Shown: piece after piece, positions 6,539 through 64,000 of the stretch
Numbering within the stretch: the stretch's first letter is position 1
Layout: every line of letters begins with the position of its first letter
Source of the DNA: a virus
Lineage: Duplodnaviria; Caudoviricetes
DNA: 64,000 bases
IMG/VR virus record: IMGVR_UViG_3300042473_001546
Coordinates: 7,399-71,398 of that record
Direction: 5' to 3' (one strand)
The notes under the pieces: generated by a model
Told to the model about the DNA's origin: nothing
Databases searched by the model: none
Seen by the model: only the letters and a program-made list of their open reading frames with translations
Program-made: the position numbers and the translations under genes

Positions 6539-7107
6539 CTGGCATTGCCTTCATACCCTGCATCTTCCAGTTCTTTTTGGCAATCAAACAAAGCCCTTTT
6601 GCCTTGCCCTTCGTATTTTTTCATAATAGCAACAGGGGGTTTATGGTCTAAGCTCAAATTGGCAAACACAATTTGTGGTGCCACCAAGGCCCTCAACAAA
6701 GGCAACTGGGGATGGTAGGGAAGGTATAAGGTGTTTCCAATTTCAGAGGCAAGGCCGTCAAGGTTCTCCAACGGATTATTGCTAGCCTCGTAGGTCCCTC
6801 CTACTTTTTTTGGCCCACCAAGCAAGGTGGTCAATTTGTTGCCGCTGCAATAGAAATTTTGTCTAACCGTCAGTGGGCAACCTTCTAGAGAGGTTAAATT
6901 GCGGTTTTGTATTTGCATACTGAAATTCGCTGCTTCAAATTCCACCGGCAATTTTCCATCAGGCGGACTACGCCACAAGAAAACATTGTTCAAAACAGTG
7001 ATTTTGCCAGTGGTGGGATTGATATTGAGACTGCCTTTTGAGGTTACAAAGCCTGGACCATCAAAATACGTTCTGTAACTTTTCTCAATTTCTTTCACAT
7101 TTACCAT
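6532..7107 (-). CDS. Variable LRR protein (array 1, first gene)
   Basis: Start re-set to MVNVKE at 7107 (SD GAAGGA); conserved tail. Confidence 0.85.
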   Translation of the reverse strand: MVNVKEIEKSYRTYFDGPGFVTSKGSLNINPTTGKITVLNNVFLWRSPPDGKLPVEFEAANFSMQIQNRNLTSLEGCPLTVRQNFYCSGNKLTTLLGGPKKVGGTYEASNNPLENLDGLASEIGNTLYLPYHPQLPLLRALVAPQIVFANLSLDHKPPVAIMKKYEGQGKRALFDCQKELEDAGYEGNARW

Positions 7108-7166
7108 CTTGCATTCCTTCAAACTTATCAAGTTCCAGTTTTTTGACCATCAAATAAGACACGTTT
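7101..7166 (-). pseudogene. Decayed orphan copy of the conserved LRR-family tail
   Basis: AAACGTGTCTTATTTGATGGTCAAAAAACTGGAACTTGATAAGTTTGAAGGAATGCAAGATGGTAA reads KRVLFDGQK/LELDKFEG/ARW* with two indels. Confidence 0.75.
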
Positions 7167-9338: not shown

Positions 9339-10481
9339 ATGCCAACACCTTCATTTCAGCCCACCTATTACAGAATTACATGGACTGGTAATGCACCCAC
9401 AGACTACAATGCCCTTACAGGAACGCAAGCTGGTGGTGTTGACAACACCAAACCTGAGGCCTACAATCGCAGAGTGAGTGTTACTGGTACTATATCGACT
9501 CCAACTGTGACACCTGGCCATAGCATTTTCTTAAATGGCATCGAAATTGTGTTCACCGGCGCCGGTGACCTTGCCGCTGTAATCAGTGACATCAATAGTA
9601 GCCAACGCCTCACAGGCGTTTGTGCTCATTCAGGCACAGTAACAAATTACCTCACAGTCACTAACTCTCCAGGGTATGAGGGGTCGAGCATTACTATTGC
9701 CAGTGGCACTGGAACAGCACGGACTGATTTGGGATTACCTGCCATAACCTATCAAGGTTATGAGATTCAAGTAAGCACTGCAACAGCTTTTCCTGTGTTG
9801 AATGGCGACAACATCAAAATAAACGGTGTCACAGTAACCTTTGCTACTGGTGCCTTAAATCAAGCTGGTGTTATCAACACCATCAACAGCTTGAGCTATG
9901 CCACTAACGTGAGCGCTTTGGCTTGTGGTGATAAGATTCAGTTAGCCTCAGTAAATGGTCAACCATTTGCATTATTGGATGGTTCAGTTGCTGGCAGCCT
10001 TGCCAAGTTGGGCTACGTTGCAGGCAACTATGGCGGCTATCCCACCACTTATGCCTTGAGCTTGGCTAAAGAGCGTGCCAACATGCGCTGGGAACAGATC
10101 GTAAACAACCTAGGCTTGCTGATCAGCCCTATATTTTTGGATGATGTGATCAAAACCGGCAATTTCACAGGCGAAGCACCTGTAACAACTATGGCGTGGA
10201 CTGTGGGTTATGATCGTCCCAGCCACTTGTACTACGAAGACAGCACTAGCCTTGGCAGCTATCTCACTGGCGTCAATGCCTTAAAGAGATTAGTAGCAGA
10301 GGCATTGATTGTGGACTTGCAGGGCAACCAAGAGGTGTTTGATCCCACAATCCAAGGCTATGGCAATTCCTGTGCAAGACCCAATCCTTTGGAAATCTTG
10401 CGTGTAACAGCAGCGGCTCTTGACACTGTGGTTACTGATGTTGAAGACAACATCACTGTTTCAATTATCAACAACGTTTGA
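9339..10481 (+). CDS. Probable virion structural protein
   Basis: Thr/Gly/Asn-rich; two internal I.INGV.I.F repeats; TAAATA upstream. Confidence 0.6.
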   Translation: MPTPSFQPTYYRITWTGNAPTDYNALTGTQAGGVDNTKPEAYNRRVSVTGTISTPTVTPGHSIFLNGIEIVFTGAGDLAAVISDINSSQRLTGVCAHSGTVTNYLTVTNSPGYEGSSITIASGTGTARTDLGLPAITYQGYEIQVSTATAFPVLNGDNIKINGVTVTFATGALNQAGVINTINSLSYATNVSALACGDKIQLASVNGQPFALLDGSVAGSLAKLGYVAGNYGGYPTTYALSLAKERANMRWEQIVNNLGLLISPIFLDDVIKTGNFTGEAPVTTMAWTVGYDRPSHLYYEDSTSLGSYLTGVNALKRLVAEALIVDLQGNQEVFDPTIQGYGNSCARPNPLEILRVTAAALDTVVTDVEDNITVSIINNV

Positions 10482-10551
10482 TGTTGACTTACAGCGGAGA
10501 TTGATTATAGTTTGGAATGTTATTGAGTAAAAACAAGGGCTGGATTGACAG

Positions 10552-10983
10552 ATGACTTTTGACAACGGTCAAATGACTTTGATACATCTTGTAAGCTTTC
10601 CGTCCTTGTGGTTACCACCTCCCAAGACTATAAAAGCATTGATAGTTGGCCTCGAGCAACAAGCTATGGAAGAGCTTGTTGCTCATTGCCAAAATGATTT
10701 TGCTGATTACAGTTTTGCCTTTTACTATTTGTCCAGCATGGACTTAAGTCAAACAGATATGATTGACTGGCTTATTATCAATCAAAACCATATGGATGGT
10801 TCCTTCATACAAGTAAGCGACTGGTCAACACTGTCCTTGGCGTTATCAGGCAAAGGTTTGGTCAGAATTGGCCAAGAACAAGCAAGTGCAGAAATACAAA
10901 AATTGGCAGAATATGCAGGCCAAAAATGTGCATCCTTAAACACATTTATCCTTGAATTAACAACATATAGTAGGAAGGTATGA
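10552..10983 (+). CDS. Hypothetical protein
   Basis: ORF overlapping clpX start (ATGA). Confidence 0.55.
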   Translation: MTFDNGQMTLIHLVSFPSLWLPPPKTIKALIVGLEQQAMEELVAHCQNDFADYSFAFYYLSSMDLSQTDMIDWLIINQNHMDGSFIQVSDWSTLSLALSGKGLVRIGQEQASAEIQKLAEYAGQKCASLNTFILELTTYSRKV

Positions 10984-12230
10984 CCACAAACATCAAAGCT
11001 CTACATTATTGTAGTTTTTGTGGAAAAAACCAAACTCAAGTAAAAACACTCATTGCAGGTAGTAATACATTTATTTGCAGTGAATGTATTACCTTGTGTA
11101 TGGAAATTATCAAACCACAAGACGAACAAAATGTACACATCATTCCCAAAGAATTAACGCCTCCCAAAATTGTTGAGTATTTGGATCAACATGTGATTGG
11201 GCAAAAAAATGCCAAAAAGTCATTGGCTGTGGCAATTTACAACCACTTGAAGCGTGTCAACAATCCAGTTGTGGATGGTGTCAGTATTGACAAAAGCAAC
11301 ATTATGATGATTGGCAACAGTGGTGTTGGCAAAACTCATATGGTCAAAACCCTAGCCAAAATCCTGGAAGTGCCATTTGCTGTGGTTGATGCCACCAGCC
11401 TAAGCCAAACAGGATATGTGGGATTAGACCCAGAGGAGTGCCTTGCACGTCTATACCAGGCTGCTGAGAACAATATGGAATTGGCAGAAAAAGGCATTGT
11501 TTTCATTGATGAAATTGACAAGATAGGGCGCAAAGGAGAGAACGTAAGCACTACTAGAGATGTCAGTGGCGAAGGTGTCCAACAAGCTCTTTTGAAAATT
11601 ATTGAAGGCAGCGATGTGAAATTCAGTCCCATGGGCGGCCGCAAGAACCCCAACGGTGAGTTTGTTACTATGAACACACAGAATGTGTTGTTTATCGTTG
11701 GTGGTGCATTTGAAGGACTTGACAAAATCATTGAGGCACGTTTGGATGAAAAAACCAGTGGTATTGGATTTTTAAGTGCTACTAAAGAACAGCACAGCCC
11801 AGATAAGACCCAGCGTTTGATGAGTCAAGTAACAACGGAAGATCTCATATCATTTGGTATGATTCCTGAACTTTGTGGGCGCATACCTGTTATCTTGAGT
11901 TTTGACGATCTTGATCATGATACATTGAAAAAGATTTTAGTGGAACCAAAAAACAGCATTGTTAAACAATTTCAAAAACTGTTCCAACTAGATGGCATCA
12001 GTTTGGAATTTGAAGATGATGCAGTGGATGAAGTTGCCAAGCAGGTGCTGACCAAAAAAACTGGCGCCCGAGGGTTGCGTGCTGTAATTGAACGGGTGTT
12101 GATGGAAAGCCAATTTCAAATCACCTCCTTGCGCGATCAAGGAGTCACTGACTTAACAGTCACGCTGGATAATGTTCAAAACCTCACTCCCTTGAAACAA
12201 GTGTTGACTGATGAACACTCCCAGCTATAA
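10980..12230 (+). CDS. clpX: ClpX ATPase
   Basis: CSFCGK..ICSEC zinc finger, GNSGVGKT, FIDEIDKI, RDVSGEGVQQALLK, IGF loop, GARGLR. Confidence 0.97.
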   Translation: MTTNIKALHYCSFCGKNQTQVKTLIAGSNTFICSECITLCMEIIKPQDEQNVHIIPKELTPPKIVEYLDQHVIGQKNAKKSLAVAIYNHLKRVNNPVVDGVSIDKSNIMMIGNSGVGKTHMVKTLAKILEVPFAVVDATSLSQTGYVGLDPEECLARLYQAAENNMELAEKGIVFIDEIDKIGRKGENVSTTRDVSGEGVQQALLKIIEGSDVKFSPMGGRKNPNGEFVTMNTQNVLFIVGGAFEGLDKIIEARLDEKTSGIGFLSATKEQHSPDKTQRLMSQVTTEDLISFGMIPELCGRIPVILSFDDLDHDTLKKILVEPKNSIVKQFQKLFQLDGISLEFEDDAVDEVAKQVLTKKTGARGLRAVIERVLMESQFQITSLRDQGVTDLTVTLDNVQNLTPLKQVLTDEHSQL

Positions 12231-13995: not shown

Positions 13996-14466
13996 ATGCG
14001 TAATACTCTTTCTCTTCAATCAACAAGTTTTGAAGACATGATTCGCGATTTCAATCGCATTGCAGTGGGGTTTGAGCCCACACTGCGCAATCTCAATTCA
14101 CTACGCCAAAACAGTGCAACTACTTTTCCTCCGTATGACTTGGAAAAGATTGGTGAGCATGAATATCGACTCAGCATGGCTGTTGCTGGTTACAGTGCCG
14201 CCGACATTGACATTGTTGAGCACGACGGTGTGCTGACAGTTGAAGGCAAAGTGTCAAATGACGCCAACCGGGTGTATCTACACAAGGGGATTGCAGGACG
14301 CAGCTTCAAGCGTGTGTTTTACATGGACCAGTATGTTCGTGTGCAACATTCTACACTTGAGAATGGAATCCTTGTGATTGACTTTGTTCAAGATGTGCCA
14401 GAGGCACTCAAGCCCAAAAAGATTACAATCAATTCAACACAGCCCAAGGCTATTGAATCAGAATAA
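13996..14466 (+). CDS. ibpA: Small heat-shock protein Hsp20
   Basis: FPPYD.EK....YR..MAVAGY, YLHKGIA.RSF.R.F, LENGIL.I, PEALKPKKI.I. Confidence 0.92.
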   Translation: MRNTLSLQSTSFEDMIRDFNRIAVGFEPTLRNLNSLRQNSATTFPPYDLEKIGEHEYRLSMAVAGYSAADIDIVEHDGVLTVEGKVSNDANRVYLHKGIAGRSFKRVFYMDQYVRVQHSTLENGILVIDFVQDVPEALKPKKITINSTQPKAIESE

Positions 14467-18165: not shown

Positions 18166-19833
18166 ATGAGTATTACCAAGTTGGCTGAGCCCAAGAAAAA
18201 AATCACCAAGTCGTCACCTGGCACTTCCCTATTGTTCAAGCATTTTCGCACACAACTTGTGAAAGACACGCACACTGGTGTGGAAGAGCTTGTGGTGGAA
18301 ATGAACCGTGCACCGTTGCGCGACATTTGCCGGCAGTATCTGAACCTTGAAGGGCTCTATGACGATGTGCCAAAGATCCATGCCACTATGCTGTTTGATT
18401 GCATTGATCGACTGCGGCAAGCTGCCCGGCGAGAAAAAAGTGCAGCCGTTGAAGAGCTGCTAAAGCTCCTCGAACTGGAAAACAAACAGGCACTGGGTCG
18501 CCTCCAGAATCAACTGGACAAGGGGGTCATTAGCTTTGGGCTGCTGAGCCATTTGTTCAACAGCGGGACCGAAATTGTTGTCATGAATGACGAGCCGCTT
18601 GCTGGTGTGGTTACAGATACACGATATCGACAAAGCCTTTTTGGCGATTATCTGGAAATCTTTTTTGAACGCCTGGAAAGTGACGGCAAGGAAATCAGCA
18701 CTGTTCGCGACAGCGTGCGAGTGCAACGATTCTCCGGACTTCGTGAGGTAAATCGGCTTTCAGTTCGCATTCTGGACGCACACTGGCGAGAAGTGCTCAC
18801 TGCTCGTGGGCGCAAGTATGTGCAAGTGGCCCAAGGTGCTCACTACCAAAACTACACTGGCCAAATGCAGATCAAGGGTTGGTGGAGTTGGAGTCCTCTG
18901 CGTGCAGATGGGCGCATCATGGTTGACATCAAGACCTATAACCAGTTTTGCAGTCGCGATAGCGATGATGACAGCGATTATGACGGTGACGACTCTCATG
19001 ACAACACAGTGTCTGAAGATCAGCTGTGGCGTTGCAGCCCTTATATCCTCGGCTTCAGTTTTGCCACCAAGCAATGGGGTCGTTTTTCTGTCAGCCGCAT
19101 TCAAGACATTCAGTTCCGAGATGCAGCATTTGATCAGCTTGTGCTGGCTCCAGAAAAGAAGGAGCTGATTCGGAGCCTTGTGGTTGACAGCAGCAGTGGG
19201 TTCCAAGACATTATCAGCGGCAAAGGTGGTGGCTGCATCTTTCTGCTGCATGGCGAACCAGGTGTGGGCAAGACCCTTACTGCTGAAGCTGTTAGCGAAC
19301 TGCTGCACCGTCCACTCTACTCTGTAAGTGTTGGCGAGCTGGGAGTTGACATCGAAAGCCTTGAAAAGAACTTGCGTCGCATCCTTGATGTGGCACAGAT
19401 TTGGGATGCAGTTATTCTCATCGACGAGGCAGACATTTTCCTTGAAAAGCGAGGAAATGACATTGTTCGAAATTCCCTCTGTGCGGTTTTCTTGCGTCTT
19501 TTGGAATATCATCAGGGCGTAATGTTCCTCACCACCAACCGTGTGAAGGAATTTGATCCAGCTTTTTATAGCCGAATCTCAATTGCACTTCGTTATGGCA
19601 ATCTGCAAGCTGAGGCGCGAGAACAGGTTTGGACCAACCTACTGGCTGCTGCTGGTATTGATGGCTTGGATCCTGCAGAACTGGCTGAGGTTGAGATCAA
19701 CGGGCGACAGATCAAAACGATCATTCGCCTAGCACAAGGCCTTGCGCGTCAACAAGGTGTGCCTGTGGGGATTCAACATGTGAACCAAACACTGGACATT
19801 GGGCGTCAATTTTTCGAAGACATCAAAGCCTAA
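18166..19833 (+). CDS. AAA+ ATPase
   Basis: GEPGVGKT, ILIDEADIFL, FLRLLEY..GVMFLTTNR, SRI, NGRQIK. Confidence 0.9.
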   Translation: MSITKLAEPKKKITKSSPGTSLLFKHFRTQLVKDTHTGVEELVVEMNRAPLRDICRQYLNLEGLYDDVPKIHATMLFDCIDRLRQAARREKSAAVEELLKLLELENKQALGRLQNQLDKGVISFGLLSHLFNSGTEIVVMNDEPLAGVVTDTRYRQSLFGDYLEIFFERLESDGKEISTVRDSVRVQRFSGLREVNRLSVRILDAHWREVLTARGRKYVQVAQGAHYQNYTGQMQIKGWWSWSPLRADGRIMVDIKTYNQFCSRDSDDDSDYDGDDSHDNTVSEDQLWRCSPYILGFSFATKQWGRFSVSRIQDIQFRDAAFDQLVLAPEKKELIRSLVVDSSSGFQDIISGKGGGCIFLLHGEPGVGKTLTAEAVSELLHRPLYSVSVGELGVDIESLEKNLRRILDVAQIWDAVILIDEADIFLEKRGNDIVRNSLCAVFLRLLEYHQGVMFLTTNRVKEFDPAFYSRISIALRYGNLQAEAREQVWTNLLAAAGIDGLDPAELAEVEINGRQIKTIIRLAQGLARQQGVPVGIQHVNQTLDIGRQFFEDIKA

Positions 19834-20495: not shown

Positions 20496-22031
20496 CTAAA
20501 AAGTCGAAGCTGTCAAATCTACTGTTATCCCAGTGATATTGGGGTCATCTGGATTTGGTGCAATAACGTCAAACACATCTCCCGGAAGGAAAGTCTCTGC
20601 CGCAGCACACGTTAGCGTGGCAACAGTCCCAGCAGCCGCAAAGTCTGCAGTTGCAAAGGGAGTGCCATTTCTGCGGAATGTCAAGGTGTAAGGGGCTGCT
20701 GGCCCAGTCAAAGACCTTACGCTACTGCCTGCCAAGGAAATTTGAAACTCAACTGATACACTCATCACATCATAAAATAGGATTTCAGAAACTCCAGGGG
20801 CAAAAATCTTTGTGAAACTGATGTTGCGGCTAGCTGCTGTTCCCACATTTGTTTGGCTGCCATTGTGTAGTATATTACCTACACCGTAGTCTGCTACACC
20901 TTGCGCAACATCAAAGTTGTCACCTATGCTTGCACAATTGACGCTGGGATTTCCAAATACCACAGCTCTGGTTCCTTCAGAGATACCGCAATTGGAAAAT
21001 CTATTGCCAGTGCTAGCTAGGCCAAAATTTGTACCATTGTAAAACACAGCAATGTTGTCTATGTCTGAAAAACTACTGGCAGTGACAGTAGTATGAGCGG
21101 GACCACCATTTACAGCTAGGCTACCCATGCATACACCGCGCCAAAGATTATTGAAACTGCAATCCACAACAGTTGTAAATCTCACGTCTTCATCAGCATA
21201 AATTCCATATGTGCAATAGCTGAATTCACAATGCAAGAAGCTGGCACGCTCAACTTCAATGGCAACTGGACTTAGATTTTGAAGCCTTACAGAAGAGTAA
21301 GGAAATAACCCACTGTCAGCAGGCACATAAGGGCCTACAAAACGAACATTGTCAAATGTAATTTTTTGATAGCGATTTAGCAACACACAGTCAATTTTGT
21401 TGCCGTTGGTGCTGACAGTTAAGTTGCGCACTGAAATGTTTTTGGGCAGTGTAGCACCGCTTGTGCCAATATTTCCACCAGTATTGCCTTGGCTGTCAGC
21501 TGTTTCCATAGCGCAAAGCAGGGACGCATCATTTACTAAAACAACAGTGTTGTCTACCCCATCACCCACTAAATTTAAGTAGGGATACAACAAAATAGAG
21601 GCTTCAATCGCGTATGTGCCAGCAGGGAGATACAAGGTTATTTGTCGGGCTTGGTCAATAACGGCTAGATTGCCTAGAGAGGTAAACAACTCTTGAATGG
21701 CAGCATTGATGGCTGGTGCGTCGTTGGTTGATCCATTGCCAGTTGCACCAAAATCTTTTACAGAGGCAAAATCATTGAGTTTGGCCCCTAACGGGCGGGC
21801 AACTGACGCCACAATTGCCAAATCTTTTGTGCGCCAAAAGTTTGTGATCAAATCATTATTTGGGCTATAAGAAGTAAGGATTTGTGTGTTGCCACCAAAG
21901 GGCTGGCCATTACCAATAAACAACTCCCGAGTATCAATACACCACCCCAATTCACCCTCATAAAGTTCTTGTGGCAGATCAGTTTTGATCCCTCTGCGAT
22001 GTTGAATGCGTGCAAATGTGGTTATGGCCAT
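20496..22031 (-). CDS. Tail fibre/spike with pectate-lyase-like beta-helix
   Basis: RIQHRRG..LP..L.EGELGW..D...LFIGNG N-terminus; SVKDFGATGNG..NDA.AI..A, LYLPAGTY. Confidence 0.8.
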   Translation of the reverse strand: MAITTFARIQHRRGIKTDLPQELYEGELGWCIDTRELFIGNGQPFGGNTQILTSYSPNNDLITNFWRTKDLAIVASVARPLGAKLNDFASVKDFGATGNGSTNDAPAINAAIQELFTSLGNLAVIDQARQITLYLPAGTYAIEASILLYPYLNLVGDGVDNTVVLVNDASLLCAMETADSQGNTGGNIGTSGATLPKNISVRNLTVSTNGNKIDCVLLNRYQKITFDNVRFVGPYVPADSGLFPYSSVRLQNLSPVAIEVERASFLHCEFSYCTYGIYADEDVRFTTVVDCSFNNLWRGVCMGSLAVNGGPAHTTVTASSFSDIDNIAVFYNGTNFGLASTGNRFSNCGISEGTRAVVFGNPSVNCASIGDNFDVAQGVADYGVGNILHNGSQTNVGTAASRNISFTKIFAPGVSEILFYDVMSVSVEFQISLAGSSVRSLTGPAAPYTLTFRRNGTPFATADFAAAGTVATLTCAAAETFLPGDVFDVIAPNPDDPNITGITVDLTASTF

Positions 22032-24120: not shown

Positions 24121-24301
24121 CCTTGTGCTATAGTGCGGGGGTAACGGAGTACACGGCAATGAGCTTGGTTTGGGGCCTGTTTTTGGTGTACTTGTTTTGT
24201 TGGATGTTCCGTTTGGACTTCCCACTGGTGATGATGGCTCTGTGGAGCAGCAATCAAACCCTGCCTCGTCTCAACACCCGCAAGCTCAAGGAAATCTGGA
24301 A

Positions 24302-25456
24302 GTGAATCCAGCTGCACCCCTAACAACTCCTGCACTGCTGGAACTGCGTGATGCGTTCCAGCTGGCGGGGTTTGGCCTCAGGCTGGTTGGTGGTTGCGTA
24401 AGAGACGCACTGCTGGGCTACGTTCCAAACGACATTGACCTGCACACTGATGCTACTCCGGAAGAGGCCACTGCCATCTACGAGAGGCTGAAACTACGCT
24501 GGATCCCCACTGGCATGGATCATGGCACAGTAACCGTGGTGCTGAACGATGTCACGTATGAGATCACCAGCCTGAGGGAGGATGTCAGCACAGACGGTCG
24601 ACGTGCTGTGGTGCGCTACACCCGAGATTGGGCGGTGGACGCTGCCAGGCGGGACTTCACCATCAACAGTATGAGCATGACGCTGGATGGCGAGCTGTTT
24701 GACATCTTCGGCGGTGCCCGGGACCTGCGTGAGGGCAGGGTGCGGTTTGTGGGCTACCCAGACACTCGCATCCAGGAGGACTATCTGCGCATCCTGCGTT
24801 GGTATAGGTTCACTGCACGCTTTGGCAAGGAGTATGACGCTGATGCGCTGGCTGCTGTGAGACGGCATCGCGCGGGTCTGAGCACAATCAGTGTAGAGAG
24901 GATCTGGAGCGAGATCAAACAGATCATCACGGGCCCCAAGGGGGTAAGCACGGTTGATGACATGTGGCGTGCGCAGCTTATGGCTGGCTTTGCTGGCTTT
25001 CCTCGTGGTGCACCGTGGTATGGGCACCCCCAGGTCCCTCCTGTGCCCGATACCACCAACCCAGTCACACTGATGGTGTACATGTGGCGTGGAGAGGTAC
25101 CAGGTGTGCTGAAACACTGGAAGGCCAGCAGGGAGGAGATTGATCTGGCCCAGTATCTCGCCCACCCCGATCGGGACTGGAAGGGGAAAAATCCCTTCCG
25201 TGAGATGGCCGTGCATGGCGTCTCCCGGGAGTGGGCACGAGAGCTGGCTGCTCTCCAGAACATGGATGTGTTTGAGAGGGCTGTGCTGGACACTTGGGAG
25301 GTGCCTGAGTTTCCAGTCACTGGTTACGATCTCATCCAGATGGGCATGCGGCCAGGCCCTGATTATGGCGTGACTCTGGACCGGCTGAGGAATCTGTGGG
25401 CTGACAGTGGCTACACCTTTACCAAAGAGCAACTGCTGGCCCACATTCAGGTCTAG
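24302..25456 (+). CDS. cca: CCA-adding tRNA nucleotidyltransferase / polyA polymerase family
   Basis: VGGCVRD.LLG..P.DIDL, E.TSLR.D, DAARRDFTINSM, RIQEDYLRILR. Confidence 0.93.
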   Translation: MNPAAPLTTPALLELRDAFQLAGFGLRLVGGCVRDALLGYVPNDIDLHTDATPEEATAIYERLKLRWIPTGMDHGTVTVVLNDVTYEITSLREDVSTDGRRAVVRYTRDWAVDAARRDFTINSMSMTLDGELFDIFGGARDLREGRVRFVGYPDTRIQEDYLRILRWYRFTARFGKEYDADALAAVRRHRAGLSTISVERIWSEIKQIITGPKGVSTVDDMWRAQLMAGFAGFPRGAPWYGHPQVPPVPDTTNPVTLMVYMWRGEVPGVLKHWKASREEIDLAQYLAHPDRDWKGKNPFREMAVHGVSREWARELAALQNMDVFERAVLDTWEVPEFPVTGYDLIQMGMRPGPDYGVTLDRLRNLWADSGYTFTKEQLLAHIQV

Positions 25457-56466: not shown

Positions 56467-56619
56467 GTGAACAAATCTCACAAGCTGGTGGCTACAGCCC
56501 CTCGCAAGCCTCGCCGAGCAATGGAGCTGTTCTCTGACGCGAGGTTTCAGCCGCGTGTAGTGAAATCCAAGCGTGCTTACACCCGCCGGCCCCGCAACAA
56601 CCGTAACCTGGACCAGTAG
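56467..56619 (+). CDS. ArfA-like small basic protein (not in ORF track)
   Basis: MNKSHKLVATAPRKPRRAMELFSDARFQPRVVKSKRAYTRRPRNNRNLDQ; SD GAGGAG; promoter at 56412-56439. Confidence 0.6.
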   Translation: MNKSHKLVATAPRKPRRAMELFSDARFQPRVVKSKRAYTRRPRNNRNLDQ

Positions 56620-56630
56620 GAACAACTACC

Positions 56631-57062
56631 ATGAGTGAGTGGCAGGATTTTGATGTTCACTACAACGATGAAGAGCAGGAAGGAGAGGGCCGATGCCCAC
56701 GTGTGGCAATGTTCCCTCATGTGCGTCCCAAGGGCATTGTAGGTGGCAATCGACAGGTCACCAACCTTGAACGTATCTGGATCACTTTCGACTACCCCTT
56801 GAGCCAGCCCTCCACACGCCAGTTTTTCAATGATGGTGGCTGGACCCTTTATGACTTCTACCGGGCAGTATATGAGGGCTATGTGAAGATCTATGCGGAG
56901 GAAGAAGGTGCTGCTGGTGATCCTGGCTTGATCCCAGGCATGCTGAACCGAGCTCGCAGCGAAGGACCGCATGGCATTTGGGGGCATGGCATCGAGGATC
57001 TGTTCCTTGAAGGTTACCAGGAAGTGGCACCTGGAGAGTTCAAGCTGGGCATGGGCAGCTGA
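56631..57062 (+). CDS. Hypothetical protein
   Basis: FDYPL, Y.KIY.EE, G.HGIWGH.I.DL.LEG. Confidence 0.7.
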   Translation: MSEWQDFDVHYNDEEQEGEGRCPRVAMFPHVRPKGIVGGNRQVTNLERIWITFDYPLSQPSTRQFFNDGGWTLYDFYRAVYEGYVKIYAEEEGAAGDPGLIPGMLNRARSEGPHGIWGHGIEDLFLEGYQEVAPGEFKLGMGS

Positions 57063-57124
57063 CTCTGATTTGGCATAGGCAATTTTGCTCCATATAATCT
57101 TGGGAGCAAACAAAGGAGTTGCCT

Positions 57125-57685
57125 ATGCCGCCACTAGCTGGAAAAGTGTTGCCCAGTCTTGAAGATCACAATGTGTATCTTTTCATGGAGTCATTTGAGG
57201 ACAAAACTGTTCGACCCGTTATTGAGTTCATTCTACGAAAAAATCTCTTGCCCAACAAAGAGCGTCCCCCGCATCTCACAATCATTATTTGCAGCCCAGG
57301 TGGAGAGATGCCGTCTGCCTTTGCACTGATTGATGTAATCAAAGGCAGCACTATTCCAATTCACACTGTTGGCCTCGGCCAAATTGCCAGTTGCGGCCTT
57401 CTCCTATTTATGAGTGGAGCCAAAGGGCATCGAGTCATTACCCCTAGCACCAGCATCATGAGTCATCAATACTCTTGGGGGCAAGGTGGGAAACATCACG
57501 AACTCTTGTCAACAGTCAAGGAGTTTGAACTCACTGGCAAACGAATGATCGAATTGTATCGGCATTGTACTGGTCTGGATGAGAAAACAATTCGCAAATT
57601 ACTGCTGCCGGCCAGCGACGTTTGGCTCACTCCTGAAGAGGCAGTCAATTACGGTATTGCTGACGAGATCAAAGAGACTTTTTGA
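57125..57685 (+). CDS. clpP: ClpP protease
   Basis: I.SPGG, TVGLGQIASCG (Ser), IMSHQ (His), DVWLTPEEA..YG..D (Asp). Confidence 0.9.
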   Translation: MPPLAGKVLPSLEDHNVYLFMESFEDKTVRPVIEFILRKNLLPNKERPPHLTIIICSPGGEMPSAFALIDVIKGSTIPIHTVGLGQIASCGLLLFMSGAKGHRVITPSTSIMSHQYSWGQGGKHHELLSTVKEFELTGKRMIELYRHCTGLDEKTIRKLLLPASDVWLTPEEAVNYGIADEIKETF

Positions 57686-58003
57686 TTATTTTTCTGGATT
57701 GGGCAACCGGGCCACACGGTCTAAATCATTGCCCATTCTCTGCAAGTTGAGATTTTTCAAACGGCTCATCAAGGTCAAGGCGATGGGATCTTTCACACTG
57801 TCTGAGCTGGCTTTGATGTAGTCGTCCAAGCTGTTTAAGAGATCAGCTACAGTTTTGATTGCAGGGTAATCTGGTGGTAGTTTGAACTGAGCTGCCTCTC
57901 TACCATAGTTGACTTGTCCTTGCTGAATCATCCGATCCACTTGGGTCTCGCCTTCATAGGCTTCAAGAACAACCTTGCGCCAAAGTTGGATATCTTCTTT
58001 CAT
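57686..58003 (-). CDS. Hypothetical late protein
   Basis: MKEDIQLWRK..LEA; ATG 5 nt after TAAATA. Confidence 0.6.
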   Translation of the reverse strand: MKEDIQLWRKVVLEAYEGETQVDRMIQQGQVNYGREAAQFKLPPDYPAIKTVADLLNSLDDYIKASSDSVKDPIALTLMSRLKNLNLQRMGNDLDRVARLPNPEK

Positions 58004-58011
58004 ATATCTAT

Positions 58012-58707
58012 TTACCAACGGGCGTTCTTGTCAAAACCAGCGTCCTCTAGATCCTTTTGGCAATCAAACATAGCACTTTTGCCTTGGCCGGCATATTTGG
58101 CCAATATGTCTTGCACAGTAGAGGCAGGATCTTGGTAATAGTTGGCAAACGTTACCATATTTGCAATCAGTGTTCGCAACAGTGGCAGCTCTGGATCATA
58201 GGAGAGCCTCAACTCTCCTGGTATAACTTTTGGTAAGCCTTCCAAACTCTTCAATGGGTTGTCGGCACAGAAAAAGTCATCCCCTACAGTTTCGGGCGCC
58301 CCTATGAGGTTGTGTAACCCGTTGTCACTACAATAAAATCCCCCGCCCACAGAGTTTGGTGCCCCCGCAAGACTAGTGAGATTACAATGGTTACACCAAT
58401 AGTTGCCGCCTACTGTTTGTGGTCCACCACGCAATCCTTTTTCTCCAAGTGGATTGCTGTCTACGTCAAATTCACGATGCACAATTTGTGGGCTGCCCTT
58501 CAAACTCCACAGGTTTTTGTCAACGGCTTTGAAATTGTAGACTGTTCCAAAACGCACAGGTAGTTCTTGAAAGGCTGGTGCAGGGTTGATCATTTTCACA
58601 CCATCTGCACTGTTGAACAACCCCTCCTTGTCAATGTTGTCAACTGAGATGTTGATACCTATGAAATACATCTTAAATCGCAGTAGTAACTTATCTTTAT
58701 CTACCAT
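58012..58707 (-). CDS. Variable LRR protein (array 2, last gene)
   Basis: 21-aa repeats; tail ...GFDKNARW. Confidence 0.85.
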   Translation of the reverse strand: MVDKDKLLLRFKMYFIGINISVDNIDKEGLFNSADGVKMINPAPAFQELPVRFGTVYNFKAVDKNLWSLKGSPQIVHREFDVDSNPLGEKGLRGGPQTVGGNYWCNHCNLTSLAGAPNSVGGGFYCSDNGLHNLIGAPETVGDDFFCADNPLKSLEGLPKVIPGELRLSYDPELPLLRTLIANMVTFANYYQDPASTVQDILAKYAGQGKSAMFDCQKDLEDAGFDKNARW

Positions 58708-59276
58708 CTGGCATTCCCTTCAAATCCAGCATCTTCCAAGTCTTTTTGGCAGTCAAACATTGCTCGTTTGCCTTGCCCTGCATATTTGACTAAGATTTTT
58801 TCCAATTCCACTTGATCTGGATTGGGCCAAATTTTCTGGGCTACCAGTGTGCGCAACAAGGGAAGAGTGGGTGTATAATCAAACTCTACACCGAGCCCCC
58901 CAATATGTGATGCTAGCCCATCTAAATTTTCCAATGGATTCTTAGTCACAAGATAATAGGTTCCCACATAGTCAGGTCCGCCAGTTAAGGTGGTTAAGTT
59001 GTTGTTTTTGACAGAGAATGCCTTTCCAACCCAATATGGGGAACCTTCGAGCGTTGTGAGTCCAAGATCAACCGCTTGAAAGTTACCAGTGATTTTACCA
59101 AACACCAGAGGAAGTGTTTTGTGGCTTCTCCTCCCAAACAGTCGATGCAAGTCAATGTCACCAGAGATGTCAACTCTATTTTCGCTATCTAGTGAGATGG
59201 AGTTAAGGGCAAGTGTTGGGGCATAATCACGGAGTATTTGTTTAGCTTCTTGCAGACTGCTTGCTTTATCTACCAT
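58701..59276 (-). CDS. Variable LRR protein (array 2)
   Basis: MVDK, repeats, conserved tail. Confidence 0.85.
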   Translation of the reverse strand: MVDKASSLQEAKQILRDYAPTLALNSISLDSENRVDISGDIDLHRLFGRRSHKTLPLVFGKITGNFQAVDLGLTTLEGSPYWVGKAFSVKNNNLTTLTGGPDYVGTYYLVTKNPLENLDGLASHIGGLGVEFDYTPTLPLLRTLVAQKIWPNPDQVELEKILVKYAGQGKRAMFDCQKDLEDAGFEGNARW

Positions 59277-59965
59277 CTTGCATTCTCCTCAAAGCCAGCG
59301 TCCTCTAGATCCTTTTGGCAATCAAACAGGGCTCGTTTTCCTTGGCCGGTATATTTGTTGAGTATGAGTTCCACGTCCTTCATCTTCTCTCCATTATCGG
59401 GATTGATAAGCTGTATTTCGTTCACAGTCAAAAGGCCCAACAAGGGTAAATGTGGTTTCCAAGTGATTACCACAGTGTTTACATGTGCAGGAGTATTACG
59501 AAAATGTTCAAAAGGGTTTTCAGTGGCCCAAATATAATTTGTGGGTGGACAAGACTCTAGACTGGTCAACAGATTTTTATTACACACTAACTCATATAAG
59601 ACAGGTGGACAATATTTCAAGCTCACTAACTGATTGTTGCTGCAATCAAAATTTTGAGTTTCTTTGGGTGCGTATTGTAGGGAAGTTAACTGATTATCTT
59701 CACAATGGAAGTCTCCTTGGACAACAAGTGGACAGCCTTCTAAGCTCTTCAATCCCATTCCCGAAACAATGAAATCATAATGAGCTATCTTGAATTTGAT
59801 AGGTAGTTTTCCAGTGGCAAATGACCGAACAGCCCCAGCAGAGGAATATAATTCCACCCAACCATGGTCATCAACATTGTAATCGTCGTTATCAAGTGGT
59901 CGTTCAGAATAAGTGGTCTTGAAATGCCTTGTGAGTATTTTGGCTGTGTTGTATTTGTCTACCAT
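59270..59965 (-). CDS. Variable LRR protein (array 2)
   Basis: Start re-set to MVDKYNT at 59965; includes shorter repeat variants. Confidence 0.85.
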   Translation of the reverse strand: MVDKYNTAKILTRHFKTTYSERPLDNDDYNVDDHGWVELYSSAGAVRSFATGKLPIKFKIAHYDFIVSGMGLKSLEGCPLVVQGDFHCEDNQLTSLQYAPKETQNFDCSNNQLVSLKYCPPVLYELVCNKNLLTSLESCPPTNYIWATENPFEHFRNTPAHVNTVVITWKPHLPLLGLLTVNEIQLINPDNGEKMKDVELILNKYTGQGKRALFDCQKDLEDAGFEENARW

Positions 59966-60531
59966 CTGGCATTTCCCCCAAACCCTGCATCTTCCAGTTC
60001 TTTTTGGCAATCGAACATTGCTCGTTTTCCCTGTCCCTGGTAACGAAACATTATGTTGTTCACCGCATCACGTGCTGCTTCTATCTCAAGAGTTGGCTCA
60101 CTTGGCAGTCGCAAAACTAGTCCCAATTTGGCCACCAGTGTTCTAAGTAATGGCAGTTTAGGATCATAGGTGAGTTCTATCCAACCCCCAATCTCTGTGC
60201 TCAAGCCCTCGAGACTCTTCAATGGATTTCTTTCCAAACTCAAGTTACCCCCAACCTTACTGGGCATGCCCGCCAAGCTTTGGATTTGATTGTTGTGGGC
60301 CCAAAGATTGCCGCCTACCTCAGCGGGCGAATTCTGGAAGCTCTTGAGATTGCTGTTAGCCAAATACAAATGTCCAGCTATTGAGCTAAATTTGAAAGGC
60401 AAGTGAGATATGGCCCGGCCAGCATTTACATTACCGTAAGCTACAATTGTTCCATCATCGCAAATACGGTATTCGCCATCCATTGATAGGAATCTCTCAA
60501 GCTTTTCTTTTATTTCTCGTTTGTTTACCAT
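59959..60531 (-). CDS. Variable LRR protein (array 2)
   Basis: MVNK, repeats, conserved tail. Confidence 0.85.
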   Translation of the reverse strand: MVNKREIKEKLERFLSMDGEYRICDDGTIVAYGNVNAGRAISHLPFKFSSIAGHLYLANSNLKSFQNSPAEVGGNLWAHNNQIQSLAGMPSKVGGNLSLERNPLKSLEGLSTEIGGWIELTYDPKLPLLRTLVAKLGLVLRLPSEPTLEIEAARDAVNNIMFRYQGQGKRAMFDCQKELEDAGFGGNARW

Positions 60532-61178
60532 CGGGCATTTCCTTCAAAACCCGCATCCTCTAGATCTTTTTGGCAGTCAAACAGGGCTTGTTTTCCTTTG
60601 CCAGCATAATTATTCAGGATGTTTTCAACTGCCTGAGATTCATCAGGTAAATCGTCACTGTACAACCATACTTTTTGTGCTACCAAGAGTCTCAGCAGTC
60701 CCATATTTGGCATGTAAGTAAGTTTCACTGTTCTTCCCACACTGCTGGGAAATCCTTCAAGACTTTCCAAATAGGGCATGTCATATATTTGAACGTCGCG
60801 GTCCACAGTGTTTGGTCCTCCTTTAAGATTTGTGAGGGAGGTGCCTTTTATCACTAAATCTCTACTCACATAATCAAATGTGCCGCCCAGATCCTTTATA
60901 TTAGGACAATCAAAGATCTCTAGATCTCTACCAATATAACTGGGCGCACCCTCAAAGGTTCTCACAAGTGATCTGTCTAAGCGAACATCACCACCTACAG
61001 ATTTGATCTCCCACGCAAATTCAAGAACATCTCGCCTGATGTGAAGGCTTCCAGCTATCCCACCTTTTGCTTTCACACTCACGGTGTGTTCGTTATGAAA
61101 TTCCAGTTCGCCATTCCAGGAAAAATCTTCTGTAAATGTTTCAGTAAGTTCTTGGATTTTTCTTGGGTCAGTTACCAT
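60525..61178 (-). CDS. Variable LRR protein (array 2)
   Basis: MVTD, repeats, conserved tail. Confidence 0.85.
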   Translation of the reverse strand: MVTDPRKIQELTETFTEDFSWNGELEFHNEHTVSVKAKGGIAGSLHIRRDVLEFAWEIKSVGGDVRLDRSLVRTFEGAPSYIGRDLEIFDCPNIKDLGGTFDYVSRDLVIKGTSLTNLKGGPNTVDRDVQIYDMPYLESLEGFPSSVGRTVKLTYMPNMGLLRLLVAQKVWLYSDDLPDESQAVENILNNYAGKGKQALFDCQKDLEDAGFEGNARW

Positions 61179-61765
61179 CTTGCATTTCCTTCAAATCCCT
61201 CATCTTCCAATTCTTTTTGGCATTCAAACAAGGCACGCTTGCCTTGACCGTGGTATTTGTTTAAAATTTTTTCTACTTGTGCTGCATTGTCTTGATCTTC
61301 CGTAGTCATTTGATTTGCCCACAATGCTACGCCTTGTTTAGCCAATAGCGTGCGCAACAATGGTAGATTGGGTGTCCAGTCGAGGCTTACAAATTCTCCC
61401 AATTCAGTGGGGAATCCATCCAATGTTTTCAACTGTGGGTTACTACGCAGACGCAAATAACCCCCAATTTTTTGAGTACAACCAACAAGACTTGTTAACT
61501 TATTACCAGTTAAGTTCAACAACCCAGTAATCTCAGTTGGCATTCCCTTAAGAGATGTCAACTCACAGTAGGATAGGCGAAAGTCGCCATCAATGCGCCC
61601 AAATTGCACAGGCAGCTCACCATTTGGAAAATCCTCTCCTCGTATTTGTGCTTCGACACTGCTGGCGACGTTGACTACACCATTGATAGTGACTTCAACA
61701 CTTTCACTGTCATTTGCCAAAAACCACTTGTTGAATATTTTGTGAATCTGTTCTCTATCTACCAT
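61172..61765 (-). CDS. Variable LRR protein (array 2)
   Basis: MVDR, repeats, conserved tail. Confidence 0.85.
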   Translation of the reverse strand: MVDREQIHKIFNKWFLANDSESVEVTINGVVNVASSVEAQIRGEDFPNGELPVQFGRIDGDFRLSYCELTSLKGMPTEITGLLNLTGNKLTSLVGCTQKIGGYLRLRSNPQLKTLDGFPTELGEFVSLDWTPNLPLLRTLLAKQGVALWANQMTTEDQDNAAQVEKILNKYHGQGKRALFECQKELEDEGFEGNARW

Positions 61766-62556
61766 CTTGCATTCTCCGCAAATCCTGCATCTTCCAAGTC
61801 CTTTTGGCAGTCAAATAGGGCTCGTTTGCCTTGCCCTCCGTAGCGATTGAGAATTACTTCAGCTGTTTTGTGCTTCCCATCTTTGGGATACAGTTGAATC
61901 TCTTTTGCGAGCAAACAACGAAGCAGTGGCAAAGTGGAGCTATAGGAGAGATGTAAGATTCCAGGTATGGTTGGCAAGCCTTCAAGTGTGGTGAGCTGGT
62001 TGTTGTGGCAGTTGAAACTACCACCAATTGAAGTGGGCGCACCTTCAAGTGTGGTGAGCTGGTTGTTGGAGCAATCGTAATGACGACCAACTGAAGTGGG
62101 CCCACCTTCAAGTGTGGTGAGCTGGTTGTTATAGCACAATAAACTACCACCAACTGAAGTGGGCCCACCTTCAAGTGTGGTGAGCTGGTTGTTGTGGCAC
62201 AAGAAATCACCACCAACTGAAGTGGGCCCACCTTCAAGTGTGGTGAGCTGGTTGTTGTGGCACCAGAAACCACCACCAACTGAAGTGGGTGCACCTTGGA
62301 GTGTAGTGAGCTGGTTGTTGTAGCACAAGAAACCACCACCAACTGAAATGGGCCCACCTTCAAGTGTGGTGAGCTGGTTGTTGCCGCACTTGAAACTACC
62401 ACCAACCTTATCAAAAGCAACAGGCAATCTCTTCAACTTCTTTTTAGGAGTTACCATACCTGTACAACTAACCAATCCCTTATCATCAATGGTTATTGAA
62501 CCAGTTGTTTTGAAATATTTTTCCAACAAAGCCATTACTTCTTTTTTGTCTACCAT
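61759..62556 (-). CDS. LRR protein with 7 homogeneous 21-aa repeats
   Basis: (VGGxFxCxxNQLTTLEGxPTS)x7. Confidence 0.9.
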   Translation of the reverse strand: MVDKKEVMALLEKYFKTTGSITIDDKGLVSCTGMVTPKKKLKRLPVAFDKVGGSFKCGNNQLTTLEGGPISVGGGFLCYNNQLTTLQGAPTSVGGGFWCHNNQLTTLEGGPTSVGGDFLCHNNQLTTLEGGPTSVGGSLLCYNNQLTTLEGGPTSVGRHYDCSNNQLTTLEGAPTSIGGSFNCHNNQLTTLEGLPTIPGILHLSYSSTLPLLRCLLAKEIQLYPKDGKHKTAEVILNRYGGQGKRALFDCQKDLEDAGFAENARW

Positions 62557-63473
62557 CTTGCATTCTCCTCAAAGCCAGCGTCCTCTAGATCTTTTTGGCA
62601 ATCAAACATTGCTCGTTTGCCTTGCCCTCCGTAGCGATTGAGAATTACTTCAGCTGTTTTGTGCTTTCCATGCAGAGGATACAGTTGAATCTCTTTTGCC
62701 AACAAGCAACGAAGCAGTGGCAAGGTGGGGCTGTAGGAGAGATGTAAGGTTCCAGGTACAGTTGGCAAGCCTTCAAGTGTGGTGAGCTGCTGGTTGCTGC
62801 ACGAGAAATTACCACCAACTGAAGTGGGTGCACCTTCAAGTGTGGTGAGCTGGTTGTTGTCGCACCAGAAACTACCACCAACTGAAGTGGGTGCACCTTC
62901 AAGTGTGGTGAGCTGGTTGATGTGGCAGAAGAAACCACCACCAACTGAAGTGGGTGCACCTTCAAGTGTGGTGAGCTGGTTGTTGTCGCACCAGAAACTA
63001 CCACCAACTGAAGTGGGCCCACCTTCAAGTGTAGTGAGCTGGTTGAGGCTGCACAAGAAATCACCACCAACTGAAGTGGGCCCACCTTCAAGTGTGGTGA
63101 GCTGGTTGTTGGAGCAATCGTAATGACGACCAACTGAAGTGGGCCCACCTTCAAGTGTGGTGAGCTGGTTGAGGCTGCATAAGAAACCACCACCAACTGA
63201 AGTGGGTGCACCTTGGAGTGTGGTGAGCTGGTTGATGTGGCAGAAGAAACTACCACCAACTGAAGTGGGTGCACCTTCAAGTGTGGTGAGCTGGTTGTTG
63301 TCGCACTTGAAATCACCACCAACCTTATCAAAAGCAACAGGCAATCTCTTCAACTTCTTTTTAGGAGTTACCATACCTGTACAACTAACCAATCCCTTAT
63401 CGTCAATGGTTATTGAACCAGTTGTTTTGAAATTAGCTTTCAACAAAGCCATTACTTCTTTTTTGTCTACCAT
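62550..63473 (-). CDS. LRR protein with 9 homogeneous 21-aa repeats
   Basis: Same caps as the previous gene, 42 aa longer. Confidence 0.9.
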   Translation of the reverse strand: MVDKKEVMALLKANFKTTGSITIDDKGLVSCTGMVTPKKKLKRLPVAFDKVGGDFKCDNNQLTTLEGAPTSVGGSFFCHINQLTTLQGAPTSVGGGFLCSLNQLTTLEGGPTSVGRHYDCSNNQLTTLEGGPTSVGGDFLCSLNQLTTLEGGPTSVGGSFWCDNNQLTTLEGAPTSVGGGFFCHINQLTTLEGAPTSVGGSFWCDNNQLTTLEGAPTSVGGNFSCSNQQLTTLEGLPTVPGTLHLSYSPTLPLLRCLLAKEIQLYPLHGKHKTAEVILNRYGGQGKRAMFDCQKDLEDAGFEENARW

Positions 63474-64000
63474 CTGGCATTTCCTTCAAATCCAGCATCT
63501 TCTAAGTCTTTTTGGCATTCAAACAAGTATCGTATGCCGTTTCCTGCGTATCGATTGAGAATTTTTTCAGCTGTTTTGTGCTTCCCATTCTCAGGATACA
63601 GTTGAATCTCTTTTGCGAGCAAACAACGAAGCAGTGGCAAAGTGGAGCTATAGGAGAGATGTAAGATTCCAGGTATGGTTGGCATTCCTTCAAGTGTGGT
63701 GAGCTGGTTGTTGTGGCAGTCGAAACTACCACCAATTGAAGTGGGCGCACCTTCAAGTGTAGTGAGCTGGTTGTTGGAGCAATCGTAATGACGACCAACT
63801 GAAGTGGGCCCACCTTCAAGTGTGGTGAGCTGGTTGTTATAGCACAATAAACTACCACCAACTGAAATGGGCCCACCTTCAAGTGTGGTGAGCTGGTTGT
63901 TGTGGCACAAGAAATCACCACCAACTGAAGTGGGTGCACCTTCAAGTGTGGTGAGCTGCTGGTCGCTGCACGAGAAACTACCACCAACTGAAGTGGGTGC
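63467..64000 (-). CDS. LRR protein, 5' part outside window (at least 5 repeats)
   Basis: Frame open to window edge. Confidence 0.88.
   Translation of the reverse strand, partial: APTSVGGSFSCSDQQLTTLEGAPTSVGGDFLCHNNQLTTLEGGPISVGGSLLCYNNQLTTLEGGPTSVGRHYDCSNNQLTTLEGAPTSIGGSFDCHNNQLTTLEGMPTIPGILHLSYSSTLPLLRCLLAKEIQLYPENGKHKTAEKILNRYAGNGIRYLFECQKDLEDAGFEGNARW

Follow-up and report, generated by a model that had tools for sequence, protein, structure and literature searches.

Tandem arrays of genes for leucine-rich repeat (LRR) proteins that share a nearly constant C-terminal tail lie on a contig of a virus of the class Caudoviricetes (IMG/VR record IMGVR_UViG_3300042473_001546). The window, that is, the whole stretch of 64,000 nucleotides analysed here, corresponds to bases 7399-71398 of this 71,398-bp viral contig, for which CheckV gives a completeness of 17%. 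Positions 58012-64000 of the window are filled by nine head-to-tail open reading frames (ORFs) on the minus strand, termed array 2, with a 7-nt overlap between each adjacent pair. The original prediction, made from the sequence of the window, had described nine head-to-tail paralogs of one architecture, a description borne out by the alignment of their constant tails. Matches between paralogs inside the contig (E 1e-21 to 1e-37) are far beyond chance. The arrays of the contig comprise:

58012..58707, minus: gene 1, last of array 2; 231 amino acids (aa); tail ...GFDKNARW; 58% ortholog in the related locus L014
58701..59276, minus: gene 2; 191 aa; modelled member; orthologs with 57-97% identity
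59270..59965, minus: gene 3; 231 aa; local NCBIfam match to the SspH2 LRR region, E 4e-7, far under the family cut-off
59959..60531, minus: gene 4; 190 aa; 55% ortholog in the related locus L015
60525..61178, minus: gene 5; 217 aa; 57% ortholog in L014
61172..61765, minus: gene 6; 197 aa
61759..62556, minus: gene 7; 265 aa; young subfamily; seven near-identical 21-aa repeats; Pfam LRR_4 at 30.1 bits (cut-off 27)
62550..63473, minus: gene 8; 307 aa; young subfamily; nine repeats; local NCBIfam matches to internalin J and SspH2 LRR regions, E 9e-10
63467..64000, minus: gene 9; truncated at the contig end to 177 aa; full length of 265 aa on contig L010 (ORF 10001-10798)
61979..63997: 63-bp tandem repeats in three blocks (6.8, 8.8 and 4.9 copies; 84-87% matches) that code for the repeats of genes 7-9
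4061-4651, 4645-5199, 5193-5786, 5780-6538 and 6532-7107, minus: array 1, five paralogs
very start of the contig, outside the window, plus: contig-start array, two paralogs

Long ORFs in other frames over the 63-bp repeats, with 'SSPHLKV...' runs (minus strand 61854-62420, 62645-63337 and 63502-63987, plus their counterparts on the plus strand), are by-products of the repeats and not separate genes.

The window ends at the contig end, where 662 bp are shared, at 100% identity, with the end of the viral contig L010. L010 completes gene 9 and supplies a first gene (214 aa, beginning MALTTEQ...), so that array 2 comprises ten genes. The original count of at least nine for array 2 holds; a tail-only profile finds 16 tails in the contig, nine of them in array 2, five at 4061-7107 and two at the contig start, and all 16 ORFs are intact. 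L010 and a near-identical 309-kb relative carry an additional internal array of ten genes, and the genome would hold about 27 copies if these records represent the same phage, as the exact overlap suggests.

Reading on to the start of array 2 and looking there for a recombinase had been proposed as a check. L010 gives this start: the array has a defined 5' boundary beside a lysis cassette, and no recombinase is present there. Beyond the boundary, on the other strand, L010 ORFs correspond by position and N-terminal sequence to ORFs of L014, one of which has a weak holin match (PF11351, E 8e-5, 23.5 bits against a cut-off of 24.8 bits). In two relatives the cassette that diverges from the array start is as follows:

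L014 15470-16615 and L015 14669-16982: spanin-like overlapping pair and an ORF with three transmembrane segments and a weak match to GTA-holin (PF11351)

The two overlapping ORFs, a transmembrane protein and a lipoprotein-like one, look like spanins judging by their sequences.

Pairwise identity is 77-89% among the three upstream genes of array 2 in the window and 33-40% among the six downstream ones, in agreement with the division into near-identical and highly diverged genes made at the outset. The polarised growth from the 5' side read from this pattern stands only as local tandem duplication, since the young genes lie near the 5' end in array 2 but at the 3' end in the contig-start array. 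Decayed tails have been left upstream of two arrays: one at window 7108-7131, a FEG-ARW-like stretch with a 1-nt loss, lies just upstream of the gene at 6532-7107, and a fragment of 24 residues in a relative (G001:C1:38218-38289) lies directly upstream of the first gene of its array. These remnants suggest lost upstream cassettes.

Repeat architecture and predicted fold

The proteins (~160-310 aa) consist of an N-terminal cap, 3-10 LRR-type repeats of 21 residues and a three-helix C-terminal module. The consensus drawn from 486 repeats in 146 proteins of the family is G-x-F-x-C-x-n-N-q-L-t-s-L-e-G-a-P-x-x-V-G. It contains an LRR motif, F3-x-C5-x-x-N8-x-L10-x-x-L13, in which L10 and L13 are nearly invariant. 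Proteins of the young subfamily differ by whole-repeat steps (~160, 181-183, 201-203, 223-225, 244, 265 and 307 aa).

Structure prediction had been named as a test of the solenoid. An AlphaFold2 model of gene 2, based on 55 aligned relatives, attains a predicted local distance difference test score (pLDDT) of 94.4 and a predicted template modelling score (pTM) of 0.90. It consists of an N-terminal helix and hairpins, a solenoid with a strand for each x-F-x-C-x segment, and three helices after LPLLR. The fold is thus predicted with confidence to be a beta-solenoid of LRR type closed by the C-terminal module. Against the PDB the model gives no match at E <= 0.001, and the best matches are all LRR proteins with TM-scores of at most 0.36; in BFVD there are three matches at E <= 0.001, all to unnamed viral proteins. 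A comparable solenoid seems to be joined, at the N-terminus, to a dUTPase in another viral protein cluster and in a Marseillevirus dUTPase entry of BFVD. At the sequence level, Pfam LRR_4 exceeds its gathering score in one of the nine genes (30.1 against 27), falls below it in five and is absent from three. NCBIfam offers only local matches, far under threshold, to the LRR regions of internalin J and SspH2; PHROG matches are to families 21719 and 7816, both of 'unknown function', and PADLOC matched none of seven LRR genes scanned.

No 19-residue stretch reaches a mean Kyte-Doolittle hydropathy of 1.5 and no paralog has a hydrophobic N-terminus. Neither a transmembrane segment nor a signal peptide is therefore indicated, as had been noted originally, and the proteins are predicted to be cytoplasmic.

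Diversity concentrated on one face

Entropy across the 486 repeats is highest at positions 4, 6, 18, 7, 2 and 19 and lowest at L10, L13, G15 and P17. In the predicted strand F3 and C5 are core residues; positions 2, 4 and 6 lie between and beside them and, because of this alternation, are likely to point outwards on the sheet. Among 21 young repeat units, codons 2, 3, 4, 6, 7 and 8 show 710 non-synonymous versus 23 synonymous differing pairs, whereas the other 15 codons show 409 versus 304. A comparable bias is seen over longer distances: between gene 2 and ten orthologs, identity to the window copy is 31% on the face, 74% in the scaffold and 54% in the N-cap.

A diversity-generating retroelement was considered as the source of this variation. 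The variable codons differ at all bases (AGT/GGT/GAT/CAT; TTG/TGG/GAT/AAG) and the changes are not adenine-specific, which makes such an element unlikely; no reverse transcriptase was found among the ten largest ORFs scanned, a scan of the contig that was not exhaustive for one.

A constant C-terminal tail

Tail statistics refer to an alignment of the 14 window paralogs and body statistics to the 11 older ones (55 pairs). The 16 invariant columns fall mostly in the last 31 residues. Mean pairwise identity over the last 27 residues is 80% (minimum 67%) as against 31% for the bodies, so that the near-invariant tail of about 27 residues recognised at the outset is a real feature of the family. 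Synonymous-different codons make up 33% of codon pairs in the tail within the window and 35.6% among the six genes of L015. As tail synonymous sites vary freely, the constraint acts at the level of the protein and does not reflect recent gene conversion.

The C-terminal module has no relative in Pfam, PDB sequences or PDB folds: no Pfam model covers the tail, a tail profile finds nothing below E 0.37 among PDB sequences, and the tail modelled alone (pLDDT 86.3) gives a single PDB fold match, at E 8.3. The profile matched 314 proteins, each of at least 115 aa; the 120 listed among them span 116-337 aa. All 29 tails of three phage records (16 in the contig, 13 in two relatives) belong to ORFs 51-311 aa long, and neither these 29 nor the listed profile matches include another architecture that carries the tail.

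Tail types differ between phages: all six L015 tails are of the less acidic type ...GAFDCRRELRAAGF..., as opposed to the ...KRAMFDCQKDLEDAGF... type. The L015 bodies find their best matches in orthologs from other genomes (38-60% identity, 125-225 bits) rather than in paralogs of their own genome (31-36%, 55-107 bits). The tails behave in the opposite manner: each of the six shares 16-24 of its 27 residues with a paralog of its own genome but 13-19 with the top-scoring ortholog, the margin being one residue in two genes and three in two more. Together with the synonymous divergence, this pattern fits, without proving, co-evolution of all tails with one partner.

Overlapping genes and translational coupling

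Conservation of the tail end has a second aspect. The start codon of the downstream gene is nested in the ...(R/K)-W-stop end of the preceding one, where A-TGG-TAG/TAA is read as ATG-GTA-G/A. An overlapping next ORF follows 40 of the 45 genes across all loci. In all 40 the start codon (36 ATG, 2 GTG, 2 TTG) falls inside the R/K-W-stop end, and in 39 a GG occurs in the hexamer 8 nt upstream of the start, which encodes 'E-G/E-E' residues. Within the last seven codons of the tail thus lie the start codon of the following gene and its purine-rich ribosome-binding site. Promoter-like signals inside the array are not above chance (7 found, 8.2 expected). Since the start ATG lies inside the preceding gene's end, Met-Val is forced and the third residue restricted; the 'MV[D/N/T]' start that had been listed as part of the architecture is present, but as a by-product of this overlap.

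Dual coding accounts for part of the conservation of the last seven tail residues. It is not the full explanation, because genes at array ends keep the hexamer in four of five cases, and it is irrelevant to the twenty tail residues that precede. Within these, the segment G-Q-G-K-R-A-M-F-D-C-Q-K-D/E-L-E-D is as conserved as the rest while its synonymous sites vary, and many of its residues are charged. A relaxation of the ribosome-binding site at array ends was considered and rejected: the GG hexamer is absent in two of the three array-end genes of the contig, yet kept at four of five true array ends overall, and one of the two contig genes lacking it still precedes an overlapping ORF of 110 aa. 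A unit reaching from one tail to the next is thus proposed to be a cassette complete in itself, which recombination between tails could add, remove or copy without loss of expression.

Relatives, turnover and distribution

Array content varies among relatives, as the original prediction required of a changing repertoire. The flank of the contig-start array (L013 1059-7500) is 98.7% identical to the locus L001 over 6,442 bp. This homology sets in only within the final 77 nt of the array's last gene; upstream of that point the gene content is not the same: two young-type genes here, four in L001 ending in a 234-aa 'MVTEAD' type. A comparison of 80 metagenome loci anchored on ClpP places an array beside ClpP only in the three closest (ClpP identity 81-83%), where the arrays hold ten, seven and six genes in differing order and content. 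The latter two are L014 (seven genes) and L015 (six), both bounded by lysis-cassette ORFs and by an ORF of 105-110 aa with ClpP. Most genes have recognisable orthologs across these phages (38-60% identity), although number and order differ, and the ortholog types persist where ClpP is only 81-83% identical. The repertoire consists of old, maintained types subject to gain, loss and local duplication and is not a randomly generated library; most paralogs of the arrays, described at first as a library, are old ortholog types common to related phages and not freshly generated.

The stretch 56600-61800 is present in sequencing runs labelled 'lake water metagenome'; the 24 runs listed for it include none of RNA. 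Seven studies not flagged as possible sources contain 0.86-0.94 of its sampled words, and contigs from four of these align to it with few or zero differences. Contigs of four lake-water runs, compared at 85% likeness, break at every tail-coding segment, where summed depth spikes. A few joints connect two tails; one contig, for example, joins 60583 to 61173, and two runs join 60036 to that same position with sides below 30 letters. These joints were not counted as cassette deletions because, at 85% likeness, paralogs or other strains can produce them.

The family is unnamed and is found solely in viral and metagenomic DNA. Its atlas clusters are labelled Viruses/Uroviricota. Among 185,579 bacterial and archaeal species, each represented by a single genome, 152 stretches match the motif, and none of them encodes a relative. 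The repeat part alone matches 21,548 cluster representatives, including proteins of up to 3,100 aa without the tail. In accordance with the original statement that no characterised system of this kind was known, no role is named for the family in Pfam, PHROG, PADLOC, NCBIfam or the atlas, and the full-text literature, supplementary files not included, yielded no published description of such a phage family. In the available portion of a comparative review of jumbo phages, the terms 'LRR' and 'leucine' are absent and ClpX is mentioned only as a possible chaperone.

Genome setting and neighbouring genes

The contig is a fragment of a phage of roughly 400 kb. That the phage is very large is indicated by the gene content: rIIA, a DnaE-type polymerase, ClpX, ClpP, a CCA/poly(A)-polymerase-type enzyme and an Hsp20-like protein, the last read from its translation. 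Immediately upstream of the window lie DnaK-like, metallophosphoesterase-like and methyltransferase-like ORFs. The neighbours considered here are:

57119..57685, plus: ClpP-family protease (Pfam CLP_protease, E 3.7e-28), convergent with array 2
57686..58018, minus: ORF without family, 110 aa, with a TTG start overlapping the end of gene 1
10980..12230, plus: phage ClpX with zinc-finger N-domain (Pfam zf-C4_ClpX, E 1.9e-16; AAA_2, E 6.7e-30)
20496-22031, minus: 511 aa; N-terminal domain of the major tropism determinant type (Mtd_N) and a beta-helix resembling that of pectate lyase; probable tail fibre or depolymerase
24170-25456, plus: 428-aa protein with a poly(A) polymerase/CCA-adding head domain

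ClpP is a neighbour of array 2, and no membership of the LRR system is claimed for it. The 110-aa ORF, which has no match in Pfam or NCBIfam, is kept at the same position in L014 and L015 (105-110 aa) and could belong to the array operon; compared by eye between this phage and L015, it shows no clear charge-compensating pattern. This ORF, ClpP and ClpX were not seen in the relatives G001-G005, an absence that is uninformative because the contigs of these relatives end inside the arrays flanking the 71-kb segment. The protein-quality-control set is unusually full, with ClpX and its zinc finger, an Hsp20-like protein, an AAA+ protein with DUF7025, ClpP and a DnaK-like protein (window 10980-12230, 13996-14466, 18166-19833 and 57119-57685; L013 5950-7500). 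A tRNA scan of the window returned zero genes.

IMG/VR labels the contig as having inverted terminal repeats. Young-type LRR genes stand in inverted orientation at both contig ends, with ~89-90% identity over ~915 bp (window 63339-64000; L013 1-1136), and this accounts for the label. With an array on either side, the 71-kb segment as a whole could be inverted by recombination between the two.

Interpretation

The reading favoured here, with a probability of about 0.45, is that the arrays encode cytoplasmic variable binders that dock on one constant partner. It rests on the predicted fold and on where the variation lies, as well as on a tail that is both constrained and genome-specific and on a distribution limited to phages. 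The outward residues of the repeat strands would form a binding face, each paralog recognising a different protein, most likely a host protein. The constant tail would offer the same conserved, charged surface to one shared partner, of phage or host origin, and the paralogs of an array would then be exchangeable specificity subunits of a single machine. Translationally coupled cassettes could be gained, lost and duplicated through tail-to-tail recombination and still be expressed. We infer binding, cytoplasmic action, a common partner and any role against the host or its defences from these features. Of the variable binder with constant adaptor originally envisaged, the solenoid, the variable face and the constraint on the tail are supported, whereas the adaptor role and host or defence proteins as targets are conjectural.

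Several points weigh against this reading. Only the lack of signal peptides speaks for a cytoplasmic site. In the model, tail and solenoid form one rigid body (pTM 0.90), and the tail could be a structural cap only; the exposure of its conserved charged residues is deduced from helix periodicity. The genome-specific tails of L015 would also fit old gene conversion between tails followed by purifying selection; tails act as recombination points as well, L014 mixes two tail types (five and two), and the ortholog P0002, whose body is ~85% identical to that of gene 2, carries a different tail type. Dual coding by itself does not explain the residues resembling a ribosome-binding site, given the hexamers kept at most array ends (4/5).

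One alternative is that of stand-alone binders without a common partner, in which the tail would be a C-terminal cap and coupling cassette and each protein might, for example, sterically block one host protein. The tail is part of one rigid predicted domain and has no sequence or fold relative that suggests an interaction module, its last codons are dual-coding in 40 of 45 genes, and concerted evolution between recombining tails needs no partner. However, the residues before the dual-coding part are equally conserved with varying synonymous sites, many are charged, which is unusual for a structural cap, and the switch of charge type throughout the L015 array is hard to explain by capping alone; this alternative is regarded as unlikely. 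Marginally more credit, though still on the doubtful side, is given to virion-borne adhesins, whose tails would anchor the LRR protein to a capsid, tail or fibre site while the face binds host surface structures and shifts host range. A fast-evolving binding face and strain-level gain and loss of cassettes are also typical of receptor-binding proteins, the tail-fibre-like gene at 20496-22031 (Mtd_N and pectate-lyase fold) is on the same contig, and LRR/beta-helix domains have been proposed as host-recognition elements in phage Goslar, according to part of a structure preprint. Yet the arrays lie among replication, chaperone and lysis genes (DnaE, ClpP, ClpX, rIIA, DnaK and the lysis cassette), a context that carries weak meaning in huge phages, on the opposite strand and outside any recognisable structural module, and Pfam and PHROG offer no structural-protein family match.

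A specific form of the favoured reading would make the proteins substrate receptors for proteolysis, with tails docking on phage or host ClpXP and faces delivering host proteins for degradation. That the arrays form a library of interchangeable substrate receptors for one phage-controlled machine, with phage ClpXP as the leading candidate, is improbable on present evidence, which points only to some single machine and not to ClpXP specifically. Under such a scheme each LRR face would capture a different host protein, for instance a defence protein, the tail would hand it over for destruction or sequestration, and new specificities would arise by unequal recombination of the 63-bp units and tail-to-tail exchange of cassettes. 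The phage does encode ClpP and a ClpX with a zinc-finger adaptor-binding domain, ClpP adjoins array 2 in the three closest relatives, and a phage adaptor-like protein that modulates ClpCP is in print (PMC6873191, in excerpt). On the other hand, array and ClpP are convergent and not co-transcribed, and their adjacency is limited to close relatives. The tail is folded, unlike the flexible C-terminal peptide of SspB. Two large relatives show no ClpX or ClpP, a point of little weight as their contigs break at arrays. A complex prediction for phage ClpX and gene 2 scored 0.01 against a mark of 0.32 and, being without controls, is evidence neither way.

A non-functional expansion, in which selfish or neutral cassettes amplify without a role in infection, is highly improbable. 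The cassette carries its own expression signals and amplifies readily, and decayed tail remnants occur upstream of two arrays; but all 16 ORFs are intact, the tail is under strong purifying selection, ortholog types persist between phages whose ClpP is only 81-83% identical, and the tail profile matched 314 proteins.

Implications

Should the proteins prove to be variable binders that share a dock, a single phage would give over an estimated 4-5% of its ~400-kb genome (~27 genes of ~0.65 kb) to a modular recognition repertoire. Such a strategy is known in eukaryotic viruses and immune systems and has not been described for phages; it would indicate many host targets at once. It would also yield an LRR scaffold that is compact (160-310 aa), carries a cysteine ladder and has its variable face defined, and would show that a cassette carrying its own translation signals lets arrays grow and shrink freely. 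In practical terms, assemblies of such huge phages break at these arrays, which yield false calls of 'inverted terminal repeat'.

Comparison with known systems

Internalin J (InlJ) of Listeria is built of 21-residue 'cysteine-ladder' LRRs. The phage repeats have the same length and likewise replace a core hydrophobic residue by Cys in x-F-x-C-x-x-N-x-L (C in 229 of 486 repeats), and the NCBIfam internalin_J model has a local match in gene 8 (E 8.8e-10). At 37.5 bits, however, this match lies far under the 1700-bit cut-off of the family and concerns the repeats only. In contrast to internalins, the phage proteins lack a signal peptide, the internalin N-cap, the inter-repeat (Ig-like) domain and a cell-wall anchor, and they differ from InlJ in their C-terminal module and in their phage, predicted cytoplasmic context.

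The IpaH/SspH LRR-NEL effectors of enterobacteria similarly fuse short, helix-free LRRs of the bacterial type to a constant C-terminal module, and their LRRs serve as the substrate-binding domain. Local NCBIfam matches to the SspH2 LRR region, and SspH1 and IpaH LRRs among the non-significant fold matches, are in line with this likeness. The constant part of the phage proteins, however, is ~55 residues and three helices, compared with a ~300-residue NEL ligase domain; the NEL domain has no match in Pfam or NCBIfam, and the phage proteins end ~55 residues past the last repeat.

The variable lymphocyte receptors of jawless vertebrates are capped LRR solenoids, somatically assembled, with diversity on the concave strands. 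The phage family shares the capped solenoid, the diversity at strand positions and the variation in repeat number (160 to 307 aa in ~21-aa steps). Its diversity, in contrast, is germline, arising from paralogs and strain turnover without somatic assembly, and the proteins are neither secreted nor membrane-anchored.

Among protease adaptors, SspB binds ClpX via a short flexible C-terminal peptide. SPO1 Gp53, a phage-encoded adaptor-like protein, modulates ClpCP (PMC6873191, in excerpt). Common to these systems and the arrays is the idea of a specificity subunit with a constant docking element, in a phage that encodes ClpX and ClpP itself; no sequence or fold relation to SspB or Gp53 was found, and in the phage docking is only surmised. 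The LRR/beta-helix domains of Goslar, in the part of the preprint concerned, are borne by DUF7941 fibre proteins.

In gene number and layout the arrays recall the ankyrin-repeat/PRANC families of poxviruses, with many paralogs per viral genome, variable repeats, a short conserved C-terminus and strain-variable copy number. In poxviruses the variable repeats bind targets, and the F-box-like C-terminal module attaches the protein to a single host machine. The phage family differs in repeat type, tail and virus realm, array 2 genes have no F-box or ankyrin match in Pfam, and docking of the phage tail is conjectural. Were the arrays to supply substrate receptors, phages would possess an equivalent of the F-box and PRANC receptor families that eukaryotes and their viruses have.

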